From a virus (lineage: Duplodnaviria; Heunggongvirae; Uroviricota; Caudoviricetes): 38,984 nucleotides of DNA. The notes under the pieces are model-generated. The model ran no database searches and had not been told where the DNA came from. It worked only from the letters and a program-made list of their open reading frames with translations. Below, in pieces: positions 1,264-33,846 of this stretch. The first letter of the stretch is position 1; the number at the start of each line of letters is the position of its first letter. The DNA lies in IMG/VR virus record IMGVR_UViG_2690316241_000009; one strand, 5' to 3'. Both the position numbers and the translations under genes were made by a program.

Positions 1264-2157
1264 CTATTTCCAGTTACAAGCAGCTTGAAGTGGTTTTAGC
1301 GCGTTTGACAGGCCGTTTAAATTGAAAGTTGCACTTACAGGGCTCTCATTATAAGGAGTTATTTTTGTATACATTTTGTTTGAGTTGGCTAGTTTTCGGA
1401 TGAAATCAATGTCATTACCTTTATAAAAAACAGCCTTTGTATCTGTAGATACTAGCCAGTTTCGCTCAACTGCTTTCTGTTTATCAAGACGATAAAGCAT
1501 GCTGGTTTGTTCAAGGCCTAAATATACATCCCAACTAAGAAATACTTCGGTTTTCTTTTCTCGGCAAGCTATAAACAGAGTAGGAGTAACCGCTTCTCCA
1601 AATGGAGTTCTGATATAATCATCACTTTCTAACGATAAAATTACATTTTTCGAATCATCAATTGGCGATGTAGTAATGGATGTGTGCCATTTTCCTACAT
1701 CTGTGGCTTTCTCTAATTTTGATTCAGCTTGAACAGCTTTATCCTGTGGGAATAGTTTATCGTAGCAGTTTAGTCTGGCTTCTTTATCATTTTCTGCTCG
1801 GCATTTAGATATCTCAGAAAGATTTGGTTGCTGAGCCTCTGTTGTTACTGGCTTTTCCGTTTTAGATTTTGAGTTTACAGATGGAGTAAATGTTGGAGAA
1901 AAAAAACGATCATAACAAGATAAACGTCTGTCATCATCTTTCTCATCAGGGCATTGATCTCTGCTTTCGAATTTTTCAGCAACTTTCGTTCGAGTCGGTT
2001 GTATTGACTTATCGTAACAAGAAAGTCTGTCTTTATTATTTTCTATTGCTCGGCACTGGAGTACTGCATTGAAGTTATTATGTTCAGTTGCTGCGTGAAC
2101 AGGCAGTACACTAATTGATATAAATGATGCACCTATAGAAAAAATTATATTTTTCAT
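1264..2157 (-). CDS. Secreted protein with three Cys-containing repeats, unknown function
   Basis: N-terminal signal peptide (MKNIIFSIGASFISISVLPVHA). Three copies of a C-x(n)-RLxCYD[KR] repeat followed by a ~150-aa C-terminal domain. AT-rich relative to flk. Confidence 0.6.
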   Translation of the reverse strand: MKNIIFSIGASFISISVLPVHAATEHNNFNAVLQCRAIENNKDRLSCYDKSIQPTRTKVAEKFESRDQCPDEKDDDRRLSCYDRFFSPTFTPSVNSKSKTEKPVTTEAQQPNLSEISKCRAENDKEARLNCYDKLFPQDKAVQAESKLEKATDVGKWHTSITTSPIDDSKNVILSLESDDYIRTPFGEAVTPTLFIACREKKTEVFLSWDVYLGLEQTSMLYRLDKQKAVERNWLVSTDTKAVFYKGNDIDFIRKLANSNKMYTKITPYNESPVSATFNLNGLSNALKPLQAACNWK

Positions 2158-2161
2158 TTTG

Positions 2162-2494
2162 TTATCCTTTTGGTTTAGTAAGAAACACTAAAATTCCGAT
2201 AATGATATCGCCAATAACCCATAAACTTCCAATGGTAATTAAACCTAAGCCTGTACCAATAACTACACCGGCTTTTTCGGCATCGGATGTTGCATTATTT
2301 ATTATTTCACTAGTGCCTCCCAGTCCAACTAAAAGCGTATAGATCATAAAAATATTAAATAATATAAAAATCCACTTAATGAGCTTTCCAAAAAATGAAC
2401 GCTTAAGTTTTTTTATTTGTTTACCGCAAGCAGGGCAATACAATGCTGAATCGCTCACCTCTTTCTGGCATTCAGGACATTTGATTAATGCCAT
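2162..2494 (-). CDS. Zinc-ribbon membrane protein, unknown function
   Basis: N-terminal CPECx(n)CPAC zinc-ribbon motif followed by two hydrophobic helices. Sits 5 bp upstream of the 1264..2157 gene, so probably co-transcribed. AT-rich. Confidence 0.6.
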   Translation of the reverse strand: MALIKCPECQKEVSDSALYCPACGKQIKKLKRSFFGKLIKWIFILFNIFMIYTLLVGLGGTSEIINNATSDAEKAGVVIGTGLGLITIGSLWVIGDIIIGILVFLTKPKG

Positions 2495-3538: not shown

Positions 3539-4561
3539 ATGGGAAGAGATATAACGCTGTACCCTAAAAAAGCAACTAGAAACGAACTTAAAAATTACCT
3601 TGAAAATTTAGGTTTTAAAAGGTGTAAACATTTGTGGGAATGGCCCCAAGGAACGTTGAATTACTCTTGGTTTGATGATACGGACTTCAAATCTACAGAT
3701 GGAGTTTCGGCTGATATATATCCTGTTTCAAATGACGAACTACACATATCTGGTAATAAATGGGCATTGCATGTGCGTAATTTATATAGCGCTAGTTGGC
3801 ATGATGTAAAAATGCTTAATGATGTTCTAAAAGGCGCACGGAGTCTTTTTGGTGGAACACTTATAGGTGATTATGGGAAAAATAGGTACGCTCCTCTATG
3901 GAAGGATTCTAGTAGTCCGATCAGTCGTGGCATTTCTTCAATATTTAATCATGTCCATCATGAGATTTCCGCTGTTAAACATGCCTTACCTGAACCTTCT
4001 ATTAAATTAAACCTACCGGAAGATGGCGGCTTATCCGAATACTTTGATTACATGCAATGTATGGATCCCAGTAGAGTTATATATAATGGATTAGTACCTT
4101 TTGCGGTTGCTATGTTTGAATATTTTTTCTCTAGAGCTTTTCAAATACTTATAAAGTACGATCCTTTCGCAATAGCAAAAAGAACATCGTATAAGCAAAA
4201 AGTTGATTTTGATATTCTGCTTGAGATAGAGAAAGGAAATATTTCAATAGAAAGTGTTATTGCAAGAAATTACACTTTTCAAAACTTAACCCACCTAAAT
4301 AAAGCATATAAAGAGTGGCTGGATATAGATGTGAGAGCGATTCTTTATAAGAAAAAAAGAATTGGAAAATCAGTTGATTTTCTTGAGAATCGAATTTCTG
4401 AAATCATACAATATAGACATGGGATAGTTCATCACTTTGAGTTGGATAGGACCTTAAATCGGGATGGATATATTCATATATTAGATGCGATAGAAAAAAG
4501 CATAATTGAATTTATCCATTACATAGAAGGCAAATACAAATTTAAATTAAATGCGTATTAA
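3539..4561 (+). CDS. AT-rich cargo protein (340 aa), candidate HEPN-like abortive-infection effector
   Basis: Inserted between ogr and D on the opposite strand, with a strongly AT-rich promoter region (3348..3538). C-terminal YRHGIVHH fits the HEPN R-x4-H motif. No P2 counterpart. Confidence 0.6.
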   Translation: MGRDITLYPKKATRNELKNYLENLGFKRCKHLWEWPQGTLNYSWFDDTDFKSTDGVSADIYPVSNDELHISGNKWALHVRNLYSASWHDVKMLNDVLKGARSLFGGTLIGDYGKNRYAPLWKDSSSPISRGISSIFNHVHHEISAVKHALPEPSIKLNLPEDGGLSEYFDYMQCMDPSRVIYNGLVPFAVAMFEYFFSRAFQILIKYDPFAIAKRTSYKQKVDFDILLEIEKGNISIESVIARNYTFQNLTHLNKAYKEWLDIDVRAILYKKKRIGKSVDFLENRISEIIQYRHGIVHHFELDRTLNRDGYIHILDAIEKSIIEFIHYIEGKYKFKLNAY

Positions 4562-11542: not shown

Positions 11543-11584
11543 AACACAAAAACCGCTAATGGCCAGATTAGCGGTTATTTTGTT
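11543..11584. terminator. Bidirectional intrinsic terminator between U and the invertase gene
   Basis: Perfect 10-bp stem (aaccgctaat / attagcggtt) with a 6-nt loop, A-run on one side and T-rich on the other, between two convergent genes. Confidence 0.7.
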
Positions 11585-12176
11585 TACTCTTCTCAATTGT
11601 TCCACTTGATTCTCCTGCGGGGTGGTAACGATAAATTGTCGATATACCAATGCTGTAAATTATTGCCAGTTGTTTTCTGTCGTGACCGTTTTTAATCAGC
11701 CTTGCTATTTGCTCATGCTGTTCTTTTGTCAGCTTCGGTCGACGTCCGCCTGTGCGCCCCCGTGCGCGCGCTGCCGCCAGTCCGGCCAGTGTACGTTCAA
11801 CAATTAATTCACGTTCCATTTCAGCCAGGGCACCCATCACGTGGAAGAAAAAACGCCCCATTGGAGAAGATGTATCTATGCTGTCGGTCAGACTGCGAAA
11901 ATTAATCCCTCGCTCCCGTAGTTCTCCGACGAGAGAAATCAGATGTTTCATGCTTCGCCCAAGGCGATCCAGTTTCCAGACAACCAGCGTGTCACCTTTT
12001 TGAAGCTGCTTTAAAGCGCGTTTTAATCCCGGTCGGTCTGTCTTTGTTCCGCTTAATTTATCTTCAAATATTTGTTCACATCCTGCACAAACAAGAGCGT
12101 TTCGTTGCAGGTCTGTATTCTGGTCATTTGTTGATACCCTTACATAACCAATCAGCACACTGAATCTCCCGTCCAA
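11568..12176 (-). CDS. Serine-recombinase DNA invertase (Hin/Gin/Pin/Cin family)
   Basis: N-terminus LIGYVRVSTNDQNTDLQRNAL carries the catalytic Ser motif. GDTLVVWKLDRLGRS and FFFHVMGALAEMERELIVERTLAGL match Hin/Gin closely. C-terminal HTH present. Confidence 0.9.
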   Translation of the reverse strand: MDGRFSVLIGYVRVSTNDQNTDLQRNALVCAGCEQIFEDKLSGTKTDRPGLKRALKQLQKGDTLVVWKLDRLGRSMKHLISLVGELRERGINFRSLTDSIDTSSPMGRFFFHVMGALAEMERELIVERTLAGLAAARARGRTGGRRPKLTKEQHEQIARLIKNGHDRKQLAIIYSIGISTIYRYHPAGESSGTIEKSKQNNR

Positions 12177-12212
12177 AAGCGCAAATCATGCCATGCAGGC
12201 CGGAAACGGCCA

Positions 12213-12238
12213 TTATCTAAAACCTCGGTTTACAGGAA
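12213..12238. repeat. gix/hix-like 26-bp inversion site, invertase-proximal
   Basis: ttatctaaaacc-TC-ggtttacaggaa, close to the Gin/Hin crossover consensus. Reverse-complement partner at 15165..15190 matches at 24 of 26 positions. Confidence 0.8.
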
Positions 12239-12283
12239 ACGGTAAACAAGGCTGGTAACGCCGTTCAGCGTTCCGGCGATAAA

Positions 12284-13126
12284 ATGACCGGAGAACTGAA
12301 AATTGGAACGATGAATGCGCTGCGAATTTTTAATGATGCCTTCGGTCTTATTTTCCGCCGTTCAGAAGAGTCCCTTCATTTCATCCCTACGGCTGAAGGA
12401 CAAGGCGAAAACGGTGATATCGGCCCATTAAGGCCATTCGCTATAAATCTAAGAACAGGTGCTATATATGTCAGCCACGGGGCCAAAATTGAAGGAGGTC
12501 TAGCTATTGGTGCTACTGATAACGCACTGGGTGAAAACTCCATTGTTCTGGGAGATAACGACACCGGATTTAGGCAAGATGGAGATGGTATTATTAGCTT
12601 CTATTCAAATGGTTCGCGCATCGGACATATTGATGGGTTAGGATTACATCTTTATAAAGATATTGAATCTAATTGCAGCAATTTTAGATTAAAAAGTAAT
12701 TACCGCCACCACATTACATTCACCAACGAAGACGGAAGTATTCGTATGTTTTTGTGGAAAGATAACGGTGGTGATGGTGTTCATATTAATAACGGTTCAG
12801 ATGGTGGTGGTGATTTCATTTTTAAAACAGATGGGGGATTTGCGCTGGGAAGTGGTGCGCAAGTTGCGTCTAGTGGCGATATTTATGGTTCAGTGTGGGG
12901 AAACAACTGGTTAAGCACATGGCTGCATAATCATGTCGTTCGGGATATTCGTCTTGGCAGCATTGAATATAAAAACGTATGGCGCGACTACGGCTTTGGC
13001 GATGCGTCAGGTTATGTTTTAACAGCCGCAATTAACGGCAATGCGGATGATCTTGTCGACACTGTTGCCAGAAGGCCAATTCAGAAATTGATTGGGGGAA
13101 TATGGTACAACGTGGGGAGTGTTTAA
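12284..13126 (+). CDS. Alternative tail-fibre C-terminal cassette (silent in this orientation)
   Basis: The frame is open back to the crossover site and encodes ...LGLQETVNKAG..., paralleling ...LGLQETVNQAS... in H. C-terminus ([18 protein letters not shown]) resembles the H C-terminus. No promoter or N-terminus of its own. Confidence 0.7.
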
Positions 13127-13127
13127 G

Positions 13128-13655
13128 ATGATGCACTTAAAAAATATTACTGCTGGCAACCCTAAAACAAAAGAACAATACCAGCTAACTGAAAAAGCGG
13201 GCGTGGTATGGCTCTTTTGCGAAGATGGCAAAAACTGGTATGAGGAACAAAAGAATTTTCAGCCAGACACCATAAAAATTGCTTACGATGAGAACAACAT
13301 CATCGTTGCTGTCAGTAAAGACGTTTCAACTATTAATCCTGAAGGGCTAAGCATAGTTGAAGTTCCTGATATTACGGCAAATCGTCGCGCAGACAATAAC
13401 GGAAAATGGATGTTTCTGTATGGTAAAGTAGTAAAGAGGGAATATACAGAACAGGAACTGCAACAACAGGCCGAATCACAAAAGGCCGCGTTGCTTTCTG
13501 AAGCAGAAAGCGTTATTCAGCCACTGGAACGCGCTGTCAGGCTGAACATGGCAACAGATGAGGAGCGTAGCCGACTGGAAGCATGGGAGCGCTACAGTGT
13601 TCTGGTCAGCCGTGTGGATACGGCAAATCCTGAATGGCCACAAAAGCCTGAATAA
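13128..13655 (+). CDS. Alternative tail-fibre assembly chaperone (Tfa/gpG-like)
   Basis: Starts [21 protein letters not shown], identical over about 20 residues to the other tfa and then diverging. Follows the alternative fibre cassette. Confidence 0.8.
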
Positions 13656-13683
13656 AAATTAAGGCCCGATAGCGGGCCTTGTC

Positions 13684-14217
13684 TCATTCTGGTTGTTCTG
13701 GAAACGTTACTGGCAGGCTGGAGGTGTCTGTAGATTCGACTTTCTGCGCATAGAGCATCCACTCGGTTAATTTTTGTTTATTCTCGTCGGAAATGATGCC
13801 CAGCCGTAGCTGTGAGTCCCATAGCTGGGTTTTATCCCTGACAAGTTGCAACAGGCTTTGCTTTTCATTTTCCGCCTGTTGCCTCTGCTCTTCCCCGGTA
13901 TAAGTTCGCTTTATCACTGCGCCATCTTTGAACATCCATTTACCCGAAATATCAGCCCGGCGATTTGCTGTAATATCAGGTAATTCAACGACGCTTGCGC
14001 CTTCCGGATTAATTGCTGAAACATCCTTTTCAATACAAATAATAACGCCGTTATGGTCATAGGCCATTTTCAATGTGTCTGGCCGGAAATTCTTTTGTTC
14101 CTCATACCAGTTTTTTCCATCATCTGAATAAAGCCATTTGATGTTAAATTGCTTTGTTAGCTGGTATTGCTCTTTTGTTTTAGGATTGCCAGCAGTAATG
14201 TTTTTTAAGTGCATCAT
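13684..14217 (-). CDS. G: Tail-fibre assembly chaperone (Tfa/gpG-like), currently expressed orientation
   Basis: Starts [22 protein letters not shown] and lies immediately downstream of H on the same strand. Confidence 0.85.
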   Translation of the reverse strand: MMHLKNITAGNPKTKEQYQLTKQFNIKWLYSDDGKNWYEEQKNFRPDTLKMAYDHNGVIICIEKDVSAINPEGASVVELPDITANRRADISGKWMFKDGAVIKRTYTGEEQRQQAENEKQSLLQLVRDKTQLWDSQLRLGIISDENKQKLTEWMLYAQKVESTDTSSLPVTFPEQPE

Positions 14218-28016: not shown

Positions 28017-28043
28017 TTGTGCAAATTTGTGCACTATTGTGCA
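28017..28043 (+). promoter_or_regulatory. Three direct TTGTGCA repeats at exact 10-bp spacing
   Basis: TTGTGCAaatTTGTGCActaTTGTGCAaac. Helical-phase periodicity suggests a protein-binding array. Confidence 0.45.
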
Positions 28044-28283
28044 AACCGAACGGAGTGTTTATTTATAGAAAAATTGAGCCTATGTATACGACGTTGCTTA
28101 TAAATACATCCCTGACTGTTATGTGAAAATATGCAAAGAAAATTACATGCTATGGAGATGAGAGTTATAACGACCTTTTCTACTTATTTGTAAAAGAGGT
28201 CGTTATGTATAAAGTTAAATTATTTTTTACTCTTGATATGTGTAAAGAATATAGCTTTGATGTTTATATTCTATTAGAATACA

Positions 28284-29981
28284 TTATTTATCCTCTTTAA
28301 TGATTTTGTTATAGTCAAAATCCCAAATTTTTCTGTCAATGCCGTTTGTTGGTGTAACCCGGTAGAATAAGGATCGTAATCCATTGTAAAAATACTGGAG
28401 AGATTTCTGATTTTCTGGTTTGTCTAACCAGTTTCTTGTAATCATTCTAAAGAATTCAATATGCTGATTGAATATTTTCTTATTTAATTTTCTTCTTAAA
28501 CCGGATGTAGACTCATGGTTGTCTTTTCTTTTCTGAATTTCAGTTTCAATTGATTGTAGTTGAGGACGTATCTTGAGTAAGTATAACTCTTTCGAAAAAC
28601 CATTGTTAATTATATCCTGATTTTCCCAGAAGGAAGAGTCGTCGGTATTATAAAGGTGCTCACAATGCTCAAATATCAATTGTTCTGGAGCTTTTTCTCC
28701 CGGCAGTGATATAATTCCTCTCTGATCCTCAGGGCTGTGATCTCCATCAAGAATACAAATTGATTTTAACGAGGTTTCCTTAAGATGAGAATCATTAAAA
28801 ATAGTTTTTAAATTGTCTGCACCAATGAAACAATCAATTAAGTGAAATGAATTACTAACTATAGCAAAATTTGGATATTTGCTTATCCAATAACCAAGTA
28901 TTTCATTAAATAAAAAGCGAGCTTCTTCATCTTCCGTGAAAACTGGTATCTTGTTCCTTGTGTATATCTCATCCTTTGTTTGTGTTTTCAGATACATTGT
29001 TATTTTTAATATGTCAGGATTATCTAAAAGCAGAGCCTTTGTAATATTGTTAATTAGATAGACAACATGGTATTTTTTATGAAAAGCATATTCTAGCAAT
29101 GTCAGACTGTGCGTTGTGAAAAATACTTGAATCTTATAATCTTTTGCGTATTGATAAATTTTATCTAATAATCTTATCTGTAAAGAAGGATGTAAAGTGG
29201 CATCAAATTCATCTATTAACAGAATGCTTTCTTTTTGATCAGTGGATTGAATAAGTGATTCAAAATAATACCTAAGGCTAACTAATGCCTTGATTATAAT
29301 GAATATATTGTCTTCCCCGGATGATATGGTATTAGAATCAATTGCTGGGTTATCGGTATCAAATAATGGGCCAGCTTTAAAATCTCCGATATTGTTTGAT
29401 TCTATATTTATAATATTAATGCCCAAAAGTTCATTATATATTTTCGATATATAACCAACATACTCTTCTGGTAGGTTTAACGGAATTTTTGTAAGGGCGT
29501 CGTCTTTAGTTTCACCAATCGGGAATAGTCGCGATAATCCAAGATATAAAACTGGTTTAGCTGGAAGTGATTGTTTTTCTTTTCCGCGTGGGTATACTGG
29601 TTTGATAGCATACCGTTGCGCTTCGTCTGGATTTTTTGAGTTGTGCTTTCTGAAGTCTAGTGTGCTATGATCCAAATAGTTAATAGAAAATAACACACCT
29701 TTTGTTCCCTCTGCCGGATCGGTGTAATTTTTTGATTCCCTAACAATTGCTTCCATTTTGGGGTTGGCTATTTTGTTTATAGATTTTATAACTCTAACAC
29801 AATTACTATTTGAATAATTTTGTGATCGAGATGGTGGCATTTGGAAACCATTGCTAATTAAATGAAGCAATGTTGTCTTACATGTCCCATTGGTTCCTGA
29901 TATTATATTGATGTCTTCATTGAATGAGAAGTCAATATCTATCAGTTTCTTAAATTTTTTAAAACTAATTTCTTTAATCAT
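28284..29981 (-). CDS. OLD-like ABC ATPase with probable C-terminal TOPRIM nuclease domain
   Basis: Walker A GTNGTCKTT, signature-like SSGEDN, Walker B LLIDEFDATLHP and H-loop FFTTHS. C-terminal PVFTEDEE then ICILDGD fit TOPRIM E...DxD spacing. AT-rich. Occupies the position of P2 old. Confidence 0.7.
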   Translation of the reverse strand: MIKEISFKKFKKLIDIDFSFNEDINIISGTNGTCKTTLLHLISNGFQMPPSRSQNYSNSNCVRVIKSINKIANPKMEAIVRESKNYTDPAEGTKGVLFSINYLDHSTLDFRKHNSKNPDEAQRYAIKPVYPRGKEKQSLPAKPVLYLGLSRLFPIGETKDDALTKIPLNLPEEYVGYISKIYNELLGINIINIESNNIGDFKAGPLFDTDNPAIDSNTISSGEDNIFIIIKALVSLRYYFESLIQSTDQKESILLIDEFDATLHPSLQIRLLDKIYQYAKDYKIQVFFTTHSLTLLEYAFHKKYHVVYLINNITKALLLDNPDILKITMYLKTQTKDEIYTRNKIPVFTEDEEARFLFNEILGYWISKYPNFAIVSNSFHLIDCFIGADNLKTIFNDSHLKETSLKSICILDGDHSPEDQRGIISLPGEKAPEQLIFEHCEHLYNTDDSSFWENQDIINNGFSKELYLLKIRPQLQSIETEIQKRKDNHESTSGLRRKLNKKIFNQHIEFFRMITRNWLDKPENQKSLQYFYNGLRSLFYRVTPTNGIDRKIWDFDYNKIIKEDK

Positions 29982-29998
29982 CTATATCATCCTTAAAT

Positions 29999-30844
29999 TT
30001 AAATGTCAGGGATTTTTATACCATGATTATAAATGATAATTTCTAGACCTTTTTTCTTATCTTGTGCAGTATAATTAAGCGTATAATCAGTCATGTTGAA
30101 TTCATGATATATGCTTTTTATTTCAGGCACATTGTCATAAGACACAACCCAAGGTAGTTGAATTTCCCGTAGTGTATTAGCGATTTTTACATGATCATCA
30201 TGTTTATAAAAATTTCTATATAACTCTGCTCCTTTAACATAATAAGGTGGATCAAGATATATTAGACTATTTTGGGGTAGCAATGCTTTTTGGTGTAGCA
30301 GAAAATCTACAGCATCAAAATTCGATACGTAAATTTTCTCCTTATATGCACCAATTAGTTCAATCCTTTTAATTAACTCTTTTTTGTTGAATCTTGCATC
30401 TAACTTCCATGGTCCTTTTTGTTCTTTCCCTCCAATAACGCCAGCCTTAAGTATTCCTGAACGGTTTGTTCTATTTAAAAAGAAAGTTGATAATGCGACT
30501 TCAAGCATACTATATTTATCATTGTTTAGGAGTATCTCCTTTTGAGTATGCCAATTTTCAATAGTCACAGGAACTTCATCAATCATTTCACATAACAGAT
30601 CGTTATGATTAACCACTGCAAACCAAAAAGAATAAAGGGCAGGATCAATATCATTTATGAAGATATTTTCAACAAGACCGTTAAGGAGCAAACCTAATGC
30701 TACACCGGCTCCACCTGCATAAGGTTCAGCATAACATCCACCAATGAGATCATTGTTGCGGAGTATTTGTTCAATATGTGGCAAGAATTTTGCCTTACCT
30801 CCCGGATAACGAAGAGGGGTTCTAAAATGAGAAGGCTTTGTCAT
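29999..30844 (-). CDS. Dam-family (D12 class) N6-adenine DNA methyltransferase
   Basis: N-terminal RYPGGK, AdoMet-binding EPYAGGAGV and catalytic DPPY motifs. AT-rich. Lies 17 bp upstream of the ATPase on the same strand. Confidence 0.85.
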   Translation of the reverse strand: MTKPSHFRTPLRYPGGKAKFLPHIEQILRNNDLIGGCYAEPYAGGAGVALGLLLNGLVENIFINDIDPALYSFWFAVVNHNDLLCEMIDEVPVTIENWHTQKEILLNNDKYSMLEVALSTFFLNRTNRSGILKAGVIGGKEQKGPWKLDARFNKKELIKRIELIGAYKEKIYVSNFDAVDFLLHQKALLPQNSLIYLDPPYYVKGAELYRNFYKHDDHVKIANTLREIQLPWVVSYDNVPEIKSIYHEFNMTDYTLNYTAQDKKKGLEIIIYNHGIKIPDI

Positions 30845-30931
30845 CCACGATTTTCTCAGTAAAAAATAAACATAATCTTAACATGGCACTTGAGTTTTCC
30901 CGATAAAAAACATCGTCGCCGTCCATAGATA

Positions 30932-30949
30932 TTTGCATAGTTATGCAAA
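30932..30949. promoter_or_regulatory. Palindrome in the promoter region of the methyltransferase operon
   Basis: tttgcata-gt-tatgcaaa inverted repeat about 90 bp upstream of the methyltransferase start, within AT-rich promoter-like sequence. Confidence 0.4.
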
Positions 30950-31029
30950 AAATCCAGTTTTCAATGAATTAAGGGGAATTATATCAATTGCATTCTATTC
31001 AACACAATATTCGGTTAGCGATTCACATC

Positions 31030-33846
31030 TCATCCCTCATGATGGAAAAGGCATATCCAACTTTGTAATTGTTTTTTCTCATCATCATTTTGATTACTAA
31101 AGTGCTGTTTGCCTCTCTTTTGGAGCAAAGTAGCCTTGCGGCGTGCGCGTTCAGTGGTTTCATTGATTCTTTGTGCGTGCTCTGTGTCACGGATGGCGCG
31201 CAGCATGTCAGAAAGCACGGTAACGGGGGTTTTCATGGTGTTCTGGTCCTGCTGAAGTGTGGATGCCAGACGTGCGGCGGCTTCGGGGTCTGATGCCCCC
31301 AGTTGTTCCAGATAGCTGGCGACCGGGTTATGGCGGATCTCTGTGCTGCTTACGCCGTGATTACGGCTCAGGCGCTGCCAGAGCTGCGTGATTCGGCTGT
31401 CCGGGCTGGTATCCGGTTTGCGTACAATTTCAAATCCCTGCGGTGCAATGATGCTGCCGTCAACGTACAGGCTGCCGCCCCGTAACAGGTGCTGCATCTG
31501 CTGTTCACCGATATGCAGGCCGAGAGATTCGGCAGATTCCCGCCATTCTTTAGCGAGTAATTCGTGGTTATCAGGCAAAGGCCGCTGCTGTTTGCGGCTC
31601 TGTGTCCAGCTCTGCATTTCATCACTGCTGTTTTTTGCCTGTTTGTCACGAAGCGAACGCATCAGCGCCCGGCGTTCGTGCCGTTTCAGTGAGCGCATCC
31701 ATTCGTTCACTTCAACGCCATCAGGGAGCTGCGGCCACGGTGCTGGCCGTTCTTCCGGCTGTTCTGTCCCGTTGTTGTTCGTTTCCTGTACACGGGGACA
31801 GTTATTGCCACGAGTCCGAGTCCAAGGGGCGGCAGGGCCGCCCTGAAGGTCAAAACCATTTTCGTGGGAGCTGTCTTCCGCTTCCGGTTTGCGTCTTACC
31901 AGCTTCCAGTTATCCGGATGCGTGCATACGCGGGAAGACTCCCCGATGAGCGGCGACCAGATCCCGTAAATCTGTACGCTCTGTTCGCCGTAATCGTTCA
32001 GCTCATCTGCGAGGTCGTAGGCGGTGCGAATCAGGTAGTCTTTGCGTGGAACAAGTACGCCGCCCTGTTTCTCTATGTAGGTGGCAAAACATCCGGCATC
32101 AGCGGCAGCGAGTACCGCATCCATTGCGTCATCCTTCAGCCGTTGCGGGCCTTCCGGGTTGCGTGCCATCTGGCTGGCAAGGCGGCGGAGTTCACGCCAC
32201 ACCTGACGGGAGGGGATACCAAAGAACTGGAACTGGCGGACACGGTGAAGGCGCGCCCAGCCGATGGCGCGTTCCACGCTCTCGGCCATTGATTTTCCGG
32301 TTTCGTGGTCAACGCGTGGCTTGCCCGTTTTCGGGTCGATGCCATCTACGGCGCGGCTGTCCAGGTTCTTTCCGATGTAGGTGGCGATGTAGCTGGTTGG
32401 CGTGCCTTTTGAGCCGTCGACGTACTCCGCCTTAAAGCGTGGGGTAATATCATCACCCAGCTCGTGACGATCTTCCTGAATGGCAATATCGCGGGTGTGG
32501 GACACAATGGTGTCGATTTCTTCCGGATGAGCAAAGACCATCATATGCCAGTGCACGGTGCCGTCATGGTGAGGCTCCACCGTGCGGATGCCATACCAGC
32601 GCAGGCCGTCGCGGTTCAGTTTCTTGCGGACCGCCGCAAAAAACGTGTTAACCAGGTAATCGCTGGAGTCGCGCATGGTGGCCCCGTTCCATTTGGGATT
32701 CGGATGACCGTTCTCTGTTGTGGCGTGGTATTTTGACGGGCAGGTGATGGTCAGAAACACCGCTTTGTCGCCACGGGCTTCGGCCAGAAGTTCCAGCCCC
32801 TTCATGGTGGCCATCATTTCTGCCTTACGGTGAACCGGGTTACTTACTCCCGCGTAATACACTGTCTCGAGATCAATCGTGAACCCGTCTTCGTTTTCCA
32901 GAATGAAACTTTTCAGGAAATCGCGTGTTTTCTCGCGCTGTGCGCGAAACTCGCTTAACGCGTCCTGGCTCAGATAGGGCGATGTTTTTCTGGAAACCAG
33001 ACAGGCGGCGCGGAGTTGTTCTTCCCGCCACTCGCAACGTAACAGCCACAGTTTGCGTTTCCACCATTCCGCACAGGTCAGGCGAAGGATTGCGCCCGGT
33101 AACAGTTCCGTATCCGGATCGCTCTTGTTCAGAGCTTCGTAATGTGGCGGCATGGCGTGCAGGTGTAACGCCATGCGGGCCAGCATCTGATACGCCTTCA
33201 GCGTTACATCCATGGTCAGTTCGCCATCGGTCGCGCCAAAGCCATCGCAGAGTTTTTCGAAGGTGCTGCTGAACATCGCCGCCGTCATGGTGGCCAGCGT
33301 CTGTATCTGGTACTGGTTGAGCTGCGGCAGGTAAAGCAAATCATCCAGGCGTTCGCGTCCGGCAAGGGAGCGATAACCCGGTGTCAGCCAGCGGTGGTCG
33401 GTGCGGTCCAGACGTTCGAATATTTTGCGCAGTGTTCCGCGCGCGTAGCGTTCAGCCTGCCAGCTCTTTTTGCCTTTCCGGCGATCGGCTTCCTGTTTTT
33501 TGCGCAGGAAGGAGAGGTGGCGAATAAGCGGATCGCGCAGATAGGACGGCAGCAGGCGCAGCGAGGCCATGGCTTCATCCACCGCGCCGCGTGCCTGTTT
33601 TCTGGCGTCTCCTGCCAGTGTGATGGTTTTGTCCTGTTTTTCCTGTGCGTCCAGGCTTTTATTAATCAGGTTGCCCAGCGGCGTGGCGGAGAACGCCGCA
33701 TCAGCCATTTCCTGGCGGCGCTCGTTCTCTGCCCGGTAGGCATCCAGCCAGGAGGAAAGCGCGGATTCAGGAACGGGGATCCCCGTTCCTTCACGCCCCA
33801 CTGCGTGGCGCGGTTGTTGCCAGTCCCTGATGTACTCTGCCGTCAT
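31030..33846 (-). CDS. A: Replication initiation protein gpA (rolling-circle endonuclease)
   Basis: 938-aa protein in the A position at the end of the early operon, with an HxH motif (VHWHMM). Longer than P2 A as I recall it (761 aa). Confidence 0.85.
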   Translation of the reverse strand: MTAEYIRDWQQPRHAVGREGTGIPVPESALSSWLDAYRAENERRQEMADAAFSATPLGNLINKSLDAQEKQDKTITLAGDARKQARGAVDEAMASLRLLPSYLRDPLIRHLSFLRKKQEADRRKGKKSWQAERYARGTLRKIFERLDRTDHRWLTPGYRSLAGRERLDDLLYLPQLNQYQIQTLATMTAAMFSSTFEKLCDGFGATDGELTMDVTLKAYQMLARMALHLHAMPPHYEALNKSDPDTELLPGAILRLTCAEWWKRKLWLLRCEWREEQLRAACLVSRKTSPYLSQDALSEFRAQREKTRDFLKSFILENEDGFTIDLETVYYAGVSNPVHRKAEMMATMKGLELLAEARGDKAVFLTITCPSKYHATTENGHPNPKWNGATMRDSSDYLVNTFFAAVRKKLNRDGLRWYGIRTVEPHHDGTVHWHMMVFAHPEEIDTIVSHTRDIAIQEDRHELGDDITPRFKAEYVDGSKGTPTSYIATYIGKNLDSRAVDGIDPKTGKPRVDHETGKSMAESVERAIGWARLHRVRQFQFFGIPSRQVWRELRRLASQMARNPEGPQRLKDDAMDAVLAAADAGCFATYIEKQGGVLVPRKDYLIRTAYDLADELNDYGEQSVQIYGIWSPLIGESSRVCTHPDNWKLVRRKPEAEDSSHENGFDLQGGPAAPWTRTRGNNCPRVQETNNNGTEQPEERPAPWPQLPDGVEVNEWMRSLKRHERRALMRSLRDKQAKNSSDEMQSWTQSRKQQRPLPDNHELLAKEWRESAESLGLHIGEQQMQHLLRGGSLYVDGSIIAPQGFEIVRKPDTSPDSRITQLWQRLSRNHGVSSTEIRHNPVASYLEQLGASDPEAAARLASTLQQDQNTMKTPVTVLSDMLRAIRDTEHAQRINETTERARRKATLLQKRGKQHFSNQNDDEKKQLQSWICLFHHEG

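Follow-up and report, generated by a model that had tools for sequence, protein, structure and literature searches.

A D12 adenine methyltransferase paired with an OLD-like ABC ATPase–TOPRIM protein: a candidate restriction-like cassette at the gpA–portal hotspot of a P88/P2-like prophage

Do two adjacent AT-rich genes at the old/tin hotspot of a P2-like prophage act together, and if so, as what? The question is raised by IMG/VR virus record IMGVR_UViG_2690316241_000009 (Caudoviricetes), a stretch of 38,984 nucleotides (nt) that we analysed as a whole and refer to as the window. An original prediction, made from the letters alone, had placed a Dam-type adenine methyltransferase beside an OLD-like ATPase/TOPRIM protein at this hotspot, and had proposed a restriction-like defence module for which it knew of no methyltransferase-paired precedent. 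We found both open reading frames (ORFs), of 281 and 565 amino acids (aa), on the minus strand exactly where predicted. With a probability of about 0.6, our analysis favours a two-gene defence and addiction cassette that works like restriction-modification (R-M) and is carried as cargo at the gpA–portal hotspot of a P88/P2-like prophage.

We first consider whether the two genes belong together. A scan for the ATPase family using one genome per species yielded 80 loci, distributed over Firmicutes, Proteobacteria, Actinobacteria, Bacteroidales, Brachyspira, Mucispirillum, Kiritimatiellia and one methanogenic archaeon. A methylase homologue, 33–57% identical to the window methylase, was found near the ATPase in 75 of them; in each of the five unpaired loci, the contig stops on the side where the methylase would be expected. 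No intact, verified orphan ATPase of the family was present among the 80 loci. The methylase lies within 400 bp of the ATPase in 68/80 loci: downstream on the same strand in 56, upstream as in the window in eight, and on the opposite strand in four. Over 74 loci, pairs that differ more in one protein tend to differ more in the other (Pearson 0.65, Mantel p 0.001), a correlation partly due to shared species phylogeny. The co-occurrence implied by the original prediction therefore holds across phyla, and the methylase and the ATPase–TOPRIM protein form a real co-inherited unit whose linkage is near-obligate.

The unit is also mobile and variable in form. E. coli carries a second pair in an integrase island adjacent to smpB (L082-L084), in which the methylase is 71% and the ATPase 65% identical to those of the window. 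Since one pair occupies a P2-like hotspot and the other the smpB integrase island, the cassette moves between element types within one species. The paralogous pair of the smpB island adjoins shufflon/pilus and Tra/Mob genes. At four loci (L002, L080, L102, L108) the ATPase–TOPRIM gene is frameshifted or fragmented beside an intact methylase, and a disrupted methylase beside an intact ATPase was not seen in the loci examined; this could be real nuclease-first decay or an assembly error in metagenome-assembled genomes. A four-gene form occurs in two Rhizobiaceae, Rhizobium and Pseudorhizobium (L051:1222-7737 and L052:1174-7695). It comprises a D12 methylase of 337–341 aa, a 710-aa HerA-like ATPase (PADLOC HerA 80 bits, mad8 46 bits), a 500–532-aa protein that matched nothing in PADLOC, and the ATPase–TOPRIM protein.

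The 281-aa protein matched the Pfam profile MethyltransfD12 (PF02086) with 74.6 bits against a cutoff of 22, over aa 13–253 and profile positions 1–246 of 253. Its motifs read PLRYPGGK, EPYAGGAG (aa 40–47) and LDPPYY (DPPY at aa 198–201), and in 14 relatives the S-adenosylmethionine (AdoMet) motif I (EPYAGGAG) and the catalytic motif IV (DPPY) are invariant. The D12 assignment and the predicted RYPGGK and DPPY motifs thus stand, but the protein falls below the Dam equivalog cutoff (NCBIfam TIGR00571; 70.4 bits versus 114.85), and 'Dam-type' is therefore only a description at the level of the fold. No NCBIfam model reaches its own cutoff for either island protein. In PADLOC the methylase matched PD-Lambda-5_B (PDLC04018) over its full length with 404 bits (E 9e-122), and MTase_II with 358 bits. 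In α-class methyltransferases, the region between motifs III and IV recognises the target. The stretch TFFLNRTNRSGIL.AGV.GG, which falls in that region and is a putative DNA-contact segment, is invariant in the 14 relatives whichever partner gene is present; this suggests a single methyl mark common to alternative effectors. M.EcoGII was considered as a relative and rejected, being a β-class enzyme and not D12 (PMC7544214).

The 565-aa protein begins with the full ABC-type ATPase core that had been predicted. Pfam returned AAA_15 (47 bits) and AAA_21 (42 bits), and the motifs GTNGTCKT, LLIDEFD and TTHS can be read directly. In 24 homologues the following are invariant: G29, G32 and K35 of the Walker A motif; S220, G222, E223, D224 and N225 of the signature; D257 and E258 of Walker B; and H291 of the H-loop. 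The homologue alignment shows the family to be conserved end to end. A PDB profile search matched PtuA, AriA and OLD inside the ATPase region only. The ATPase's PADLOC matches were HEC-04 (the best), AriA/AriAB, PtuA and GajA, mostly partial and with top scores of 54–58 bits. Membership of MADS, Septu, Menshen or AbiL was rejected, since the PADLOC matches cover generic ATPase motifs only. PADLOC-DB 2.0 (2023) holds no dedicated model for the ATPase or for the two-gene pair.

For the C-terminal 230 aa, neither the window protein nor 27 diverse homologues gave a TOPRIM, OLD or DUF4435 match in Pfam; for DUF4435 (PF14491) the search reached to E ≤ 1 and was empty both for the window protein and for the 27 C-terminal domains. 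A PDB profile search with this half returned spurious globin matches only. Structure prediction pointed to a TOPRIM-like fold. The full-length AlphaFold model (pLDDT, the predicted score in the local distance difference test, 80) had GajA, the retron-Eco8 OLD-type effector and Thermus OLD as its best Foldseek matches. A separate model of aa 321–565 (pLDDT 89, predicted template modelling score 0.85) contains a four-strand β/α core followed by a helical bundle, and matched AriB best, with retron TOPRIMs, GajA and OLD also among its structural matches. The C-terminal motifs read IPVFTEDEEAR and ICILDGD, and E350/D351/E353 together with D412-G-D414 are invariant among homologues; their placement in the model is that of a TOPRIM arrangement.

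A second line of support came from a sister ATPase–TOPRIM family of 535–600 aa found on approximately 25 viral contigs (L096-L139; for example L137:2757-4448), directly upstream of close methylase relatives. Its alignment with the window family by hhalign runs end to end (probability 100%, E 3e-89) with both TOPRIM motifs in register, and the PADLOC model 'ATPase-Toprim_I-B' aligns through to the C-terminal end of the sister family. This retron type I-B model picks up the sister family more readily than the window family. A collection of 1.84 billion representatives contains approximately 159 clusters of the C-terminal domain at 50% identity, and full-length matches carry it as the end of a 540–620-aa protein. 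The putative TOPRIM domain is detectable only by structure and by profile–profile links, and these agree with the predicted E...DxD pattern. The helical domain that follows may, by analogy, contribute to catalysis as a lysine does in the helical domain of Bp OLD (PMC6755086). From these models and alignments we conclude that the protein is probably an OLD-like ABC ATPase joined to a divergent TOPRIM domain.

'OLD-like' is apt for architecture but does not extend to family membership by sequence. P2 Old, class 1 and 2 OLD, GajA and the retron-Eco8 effector share the layout of ABC ATPase, TOPRIM and helical region, while their sequence likeness to the window protein is confined to the ATPase motifs, and no OLD profile matched its C-terminal domain. 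P2 Old also occupies the same gpA–portal hotspot. Close homology to P2 Old was nevertheless rejected: hhalign aligned 61 columns around Walker B only (probability 78%), BLASTP gave E 0.011, and the PDB OLD structure 6p74 scored 22 bits against the window protein.

The methylase clade links the island to an experimentally validated system. PD-λ-5, which combines a methyltransferase with a nuclease and gives broad protection, comes from E. coli ECOR7 and was described by Vassallo et al. (2022, PMC9519451). Its cloning required an mrr-deleted host (PMC9519451), which implies active adenine methylation. Its authors called it a compacted restriction-modification plus abortive infection system, and its component PD-λ-5_A is a ParB/HEPN protein (PMC9519451). 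Many systems of that study came from P2-like prophages, four of them from the gpA–portal position, although PD-λ-5 is not necessarily among those four. A Pseudomonas methylase 59–60% identical to that of the window adjoins a protein scoring 843 bits on PD-Lambda-5_A, where genuine PD-λ-5_A proteins score 100–890 bits. The window methylase scores 404 bits on PD-Lambda-5_B, against 418 bits for the methylase beside a true PD-λ-5_A. Both systems are thus two-gene methylase plus nuclease cassettes with a methylase of the same clade, whereas the effector here is an ABC ATPase–TOPRIM fusion unrelated to the ParB/HEPN protein. No PD-λ-5_A-like ORF is present in the island, which holds two ORFs only, and none appears among the 25 best PADLOC matches of the ATPase. 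PADLOC would not call PD-λ-5 on the island because component A is missing.

The two types of effector also occur together. In four species genomes (L014, L045, L075, L076), the ATPase–TOPRIM gene and the methylase are separated by 1.5–2 kb that holds a PD-λ-5_A homologue scoring 103–893 bits. The viral contig L100 has the same order of ATPase–TOPRIM, PD-Lambda-5_A homologue and methylase. We surveyed 57 viral contigs with a close methylase relative: approximately 19 had PD-λ-5_A adjacent, six the window pair, approximately 25 the sister ATPase–TOPRIM and one both effector types. On the six IMG/VR contigs with the window pair, the methylase is identical to that of the window and adjoins a full-length ATPase of the same family. 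More distant methylase relatives on viral contigs had neither partner. One methylase clade therefore serves ATPase–TOPRIM, PD-λ-5_A or both, the effectors being interchangeable or stacked.

These precedents, and others, make the claim that a methyltransferase-paired system lacked precedent overstated. PD-λ-5 was validated with a methylase of the same family. HEC-04 is an ABC ATPase–TOPRIM single polypeptide found inside methylase-containing helicase-methylase-ATPase (Hma) systems (Payne et al. 2024, bioRxiv 10.1101/2024.01.29.577857), where mutation of E319/D375/D377 abolishes defence, and it defends alone and is toxic on induction (10.1101/2024.01.29.577857). It is likewise a fusion, and the spacing of its E...DxD residues resembles that of E350/D412/D414 here, but the match of its model to the window ATPase is partial and distant (58 bits, aa 249–444, model positions 230–408 of 494). 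HEC-04 was validated as a stand-alone gene inside the Hma system, whereas the island has a small D12 methylase and no helicase. OLD-ABC/TOPRIM modules also occur in BREX-type systems, and where they are attached to systems with a methylase they have been read as a suicidal backup (PMC12839542). The published OLD classes are solitary and helicase-linked genes, with no methylase-linked class (PMC6755086).

Other relatives differ in their partners. Gabija and class 2 OLD have a UvrD/GajB helicase as neighbour, whereas the island has no further ORF and is flanked by gene A and the portal region; retron type I-B has a reverse transcriptase partner, and no reverse transcriptase ORF lies in or beside the island. 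PARIS is triggered by Ocr and its AriB cleaves tRNA-Lys (PMC11464382). It consists of the AriA ABC ATPase and the AriB TOPRIM/DUF4435 protein (fused in AriAB) and has no methylase; its likeness to the window protein, which lacks a DUF4435 match, is structural only. Classical Type II and Type III R-M systems resemble the cassette in having a methylase adjoining a nuclease, in near-obligate linkage, variable gene order and mobile carriage, and in nuclease-first decay if that is what the damaged loci reflect. Their restriction subunits are PD-(D/E)XK, HNH, PLD, GIY-YIG or helicase-nuclease Res proteins, whereas here the subunit would be a putative ATP-dependent OLD-like TOPRIM protein.

These data allow us to propose a mechanism. 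The D12 methyltransferase would put N6-methyladenine on a fixed motif of host and prophage DNA. In the 565-aa effector, the ATP cycle of the OLD-like ABC ATPase would control the fused TOPRIM metal-dependent nuclease, and this effector would attack incoming DNA without the methyl mark, so that the methylase would shield the cell from the nuclease. What we observed is which domains are present, that their catalytic motifs are conserved, that the two genes are paired almost obligatorily from phylum to phylum, and that the effector is exchanged for PD-λ-5_A or stacked with it. The proposal goes beyond this in three respects: we infer that methylation status is what the nuclease reads, that its substrate is DNA, and in which direction the two genes depend on each other. 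The R-M-like reading is favoured by the near-obligate pairing, the variable gene order typical of R-M, the presence of the pair on mobile elements, the correlated divergences, the likeness to PD-λ-5 and the asymmetric decay. The shared invariant methylase segment fits one mark read by alternative effectors, and we count it on the same side.

Several points weigh against this reading. The evidence on the cassette consists of sequence comparisons and predicted structures. Among the nearest structural relatives of the C-terminal domain is AriB, an enzyme that cleaves tRNA and not DNA (PMC11464382), and no DNA-reading or methyl-sensing domain was identified in the effector. Because HEC-04, the ATPase's closest validated relative, defends without a methylase, an ATPase–TOPRIM protein is not intrinsically dependent on a modification partner. 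The methylated motif cannot be inferred from the sole PDB relative of the methylase, which is distant (7m6b, 67 bits). Shared species phylogeny also limits what the correlated divergences can contribute. A wider version of the R-M-like reading is more tentative, and we would place it somewhat short of even odds: the cassette would be the type member of a phylum-spanning, unnamed R-M class in which an OLD-type ABC-ATPase–TOPRIM restriction subunit reads the methyl mark of a PD-λ-5-type D12 methylase and can be swapped for, or stacked with, a ParB/HEPN nuclease.

The same components could instead guard the cell and abort infection. A PARIS- or HEC-04-like ATPase would sense a phage protein, for instance one that counters restriction or targets the methylase, or would sense that methylation has failed; the released TOPRIM would then destroy tRNA/RNA or DNA indiscriminately and stop the infected cell, the methylase being guarded or serving as bait. 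We consider this the main rival, though an unlikely one. In its favour, AriB is the best structural match of the C-terminal domain, and the ATPase finds AriA/AriAB, PtuA, GajA and HEC-04 in PADLOC. HEC-04 defends alone and is toxic when induced, and the backup suicidal role proposed for OLD-ABC/TOPRIM modules could apply to the three-gene loci, where PD-λ-5_A could be the primary nuclease and ATPase–TOPRIM the backup. However, the methylase is the only partner in 68/80 loci, which leaves no primary restriction activity to back up, and dependence on the same methylase clade from genome to genome would not be expected of a guard. Neither PARIS nor HEC-04 needs a methylase to work, and the DUF4435 profile found no match here.

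It is far less probable that two independent cargo genes merely lie side by side, an orphan phage methylase with an anti-restriction or epigenetic role next to an Old-like exclusion gene. Orphan D12 methylases are common in phages, P2 old acts as a single gene at the same hotspot, and the distant methylase relatives on viral contigs have neither partner. Yet nearly every locus has the pair, in taxa and on mobile elements that are unrelated to one another, adjacency is kept despite shuffled order and strand, the divergences are correlated, no verified orphan ATPase was found among the species-level loci, and the 17-nt spacer with its own ribosome binding site is consistent with one operon. The co-occurrence data bring this explanation close to refutation. 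Least credible of all is that the island is simply an instance of catalogued PD-λ-5 or of P2 Old, as the methylase's PD-Lambda-5_B score and the old/tin location might suggest, since it holds no ParB/HEPN gene, the best PADLOC matches of its ATPase are to other families, and P2 Old aligns over the Walker B region only.

Much of what the R-M-like reading draws upon is already known: the methylase family (PD-λ-5_B), the effector architecture (OLD, GajA, AriAB, HEC-04), the hotspot, and the association of OLD-ABC/TOPRIM with modification systems. In the literature covered, which included the Rousset 2022 hotspot survey and stopped short of Krishnan 2020, REBASE and DefenseFinder, we found no named or tested pair of this D12 methylase with this ATPase–TOPRIM family, nor any mention of the RefSeq accessions of the island proteins. 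How OLD-family and other ATPase–TOPRIM systems (P2 Old, Gabija, PARIS, HEC-04) discriminate self from non-self is only partly understood. Here the rule is directly testable because the ATPase–TOPRIM protein almost never occurs without one methylase clade; if the wider reading, that of an R-M class, is true, there would for the first time be an OLD-like nuclease whose self/non-self rule is explicit and genetically tractable. A PD-λ-5 methylase serving at least two unrelated effectors, and sometimes both, is a clean natural example of effector swapping. There is also an annotation gap, in that the cassette sits on hundreds of E. coli contigs and in many gut Firmicutes under generic names only, and in carrier strains it would have a bearing on plasmid transformation and on host range in phage therapy.

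The setting of the pair is that of prophage cargo. The island of approximately 3 kb has a guanine-cytosine (GC) content of 0.29–0.36, against 0.53–0.60 in the flanks on both sides, and the two ORFs fill it (Table 1). Because ORFs of such lengths lie in DNA of approximately 32% GC and have thousands of homologues, they are not chance ORFs. The neighbour upstream, with respect to transcription, is the homologue of gene A, a 938-aa protein whose Phage_GPA replication domain scores 435 bits and whose gene has its stop codon at position 31030; downstream are the portal and large-terminase genes. The predicted old/tin hotspot is confirmed by these neighbours, and so is the gene A side of the predicted interval between gene A and cos. 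The cos side is not: the P2 cos 19-mer was not found with up to three mismatches allowed. In its backbone the prophage shares 98% identity with P88-like Peduoviridae of the genus Xuanwuvirus, with megablast homology stopping at window position ~28046. At the same position P88 carries ParM/partition-like genes and P2 carries orf91, tin and old. Since P88-like homology stops there and P88 and P2 carry other cargo, the island is cargo in the gpA–portal (gpA–gpQ) position, a known defence hotspot (PMC9122126, PMC9519451).

The identical 2.9-kb island was found in 15 of 5426 complete E. coli genomes, and the exact island proteins are recorded on 759 and 889 contigs; identical island DNA was absent from the INPHARED phage collection. 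Public annotation of the pair reads only 'AAA family ATPase' and 'DNA adenine methylase'. The short spacer, with its own ribosome binding site, suggests that the two genes form a single operon. A scan for σ70 consensus promoters was uninformative in this AT-rich island (13 sites versus 14.9 expected from shuffled sequence).

Table 1. Positions of the features of the cassette and its island in the window.
Feature	Coordinates	Strand	Basis
AT-rich cargo island at the gpA–portal hotspot, P88/P2-like prophage	28047..31029	.	GC content and homology breakpoint
D12-class N6-adenine DNA methyltransferase, 281 aa, PD-Lambda-5_B clade	29999..30844	-	Pfam, PADLOC, motifs
Predicted ABC-type ATPase with TOPRIM-like domain and C-terminal helical bundle, 565 aa	28284..29981	-	AAA_15/AAA_21, Foldseek
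ABC ATPase domain, aa 1-~315, with large conserved insert, aa 45-210	29037..29981	-	Walker A G29..K35-T36, signature S220-G-E-D-N, Walker B D257-E258, H-loop H291
TOPRIM-like core, aa ~340-430; E350/D351/E353 after strand 1, D412-G-D414 after strand 3	28692..28964	-	
C-terminal helical domain, aa 431-565, with invariant R497, K501, W518, F531	28287..28691	-	Model secondary structure; alignment A3 columns R162, K166, W183, F196
17-nt intergenic spacer, Shine-Dalgarno-like AAGGATG before the ATPase ATG	29982..29998	-	Read directly: ...taa atttaaggatgatatag atg...
Candidate operon promoter: extended -10-like TGATATAAT, 134 nt upstream of the methylase ATG	30978..30986	-	Read directly from the sequence; weak
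Terminator-like hairpin and T-run, 250 nt downstream of the ATPase stop	28019..28034	-	GTGCACAAATTTGCAC then AATTTTTTTG; consensus match only

The gene A homologue itself (31030-33846, minus strand) is longer than that of P2, at 938 aa against 761 aa; its GPA domain covers only aa 180–498, with long N- and C-terminal extensions beyond. Elsewhere in the window, a second AT-rich island (3539-4561, plus strand; GC 0.31–0.36) lies next to the homologue of tail gene D. Its product, of 340 aa, has a sub-threshold HEPN_RiboL-PSP score (22.5 bits versus 28.4), an RHGIVHH motif and no PADLOC match, and the gene may be another uncharacterised prophage cargo or defence gene. The product of a further AT-rich stretch (1264-2494, minus strand; GC 0.34–0.38) is 297 aa long and contains a VasI domain of type VI secretion (89.6 bits) as well as repeated RLSCYD motifs; it adjoins a 110-aa zinc-ribbon membrane protein, and the two are prophage cargo or host flank. 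At 11568-14217, a 202-aa ORF with the look, by eye, of a Hin/Cin-type serine invertase adjoins two opposed, closely similar ORFs of 177 and 187 aa and a tail-fibre C-terminal segment, an arrangement that suggests an invertible host-range switch.

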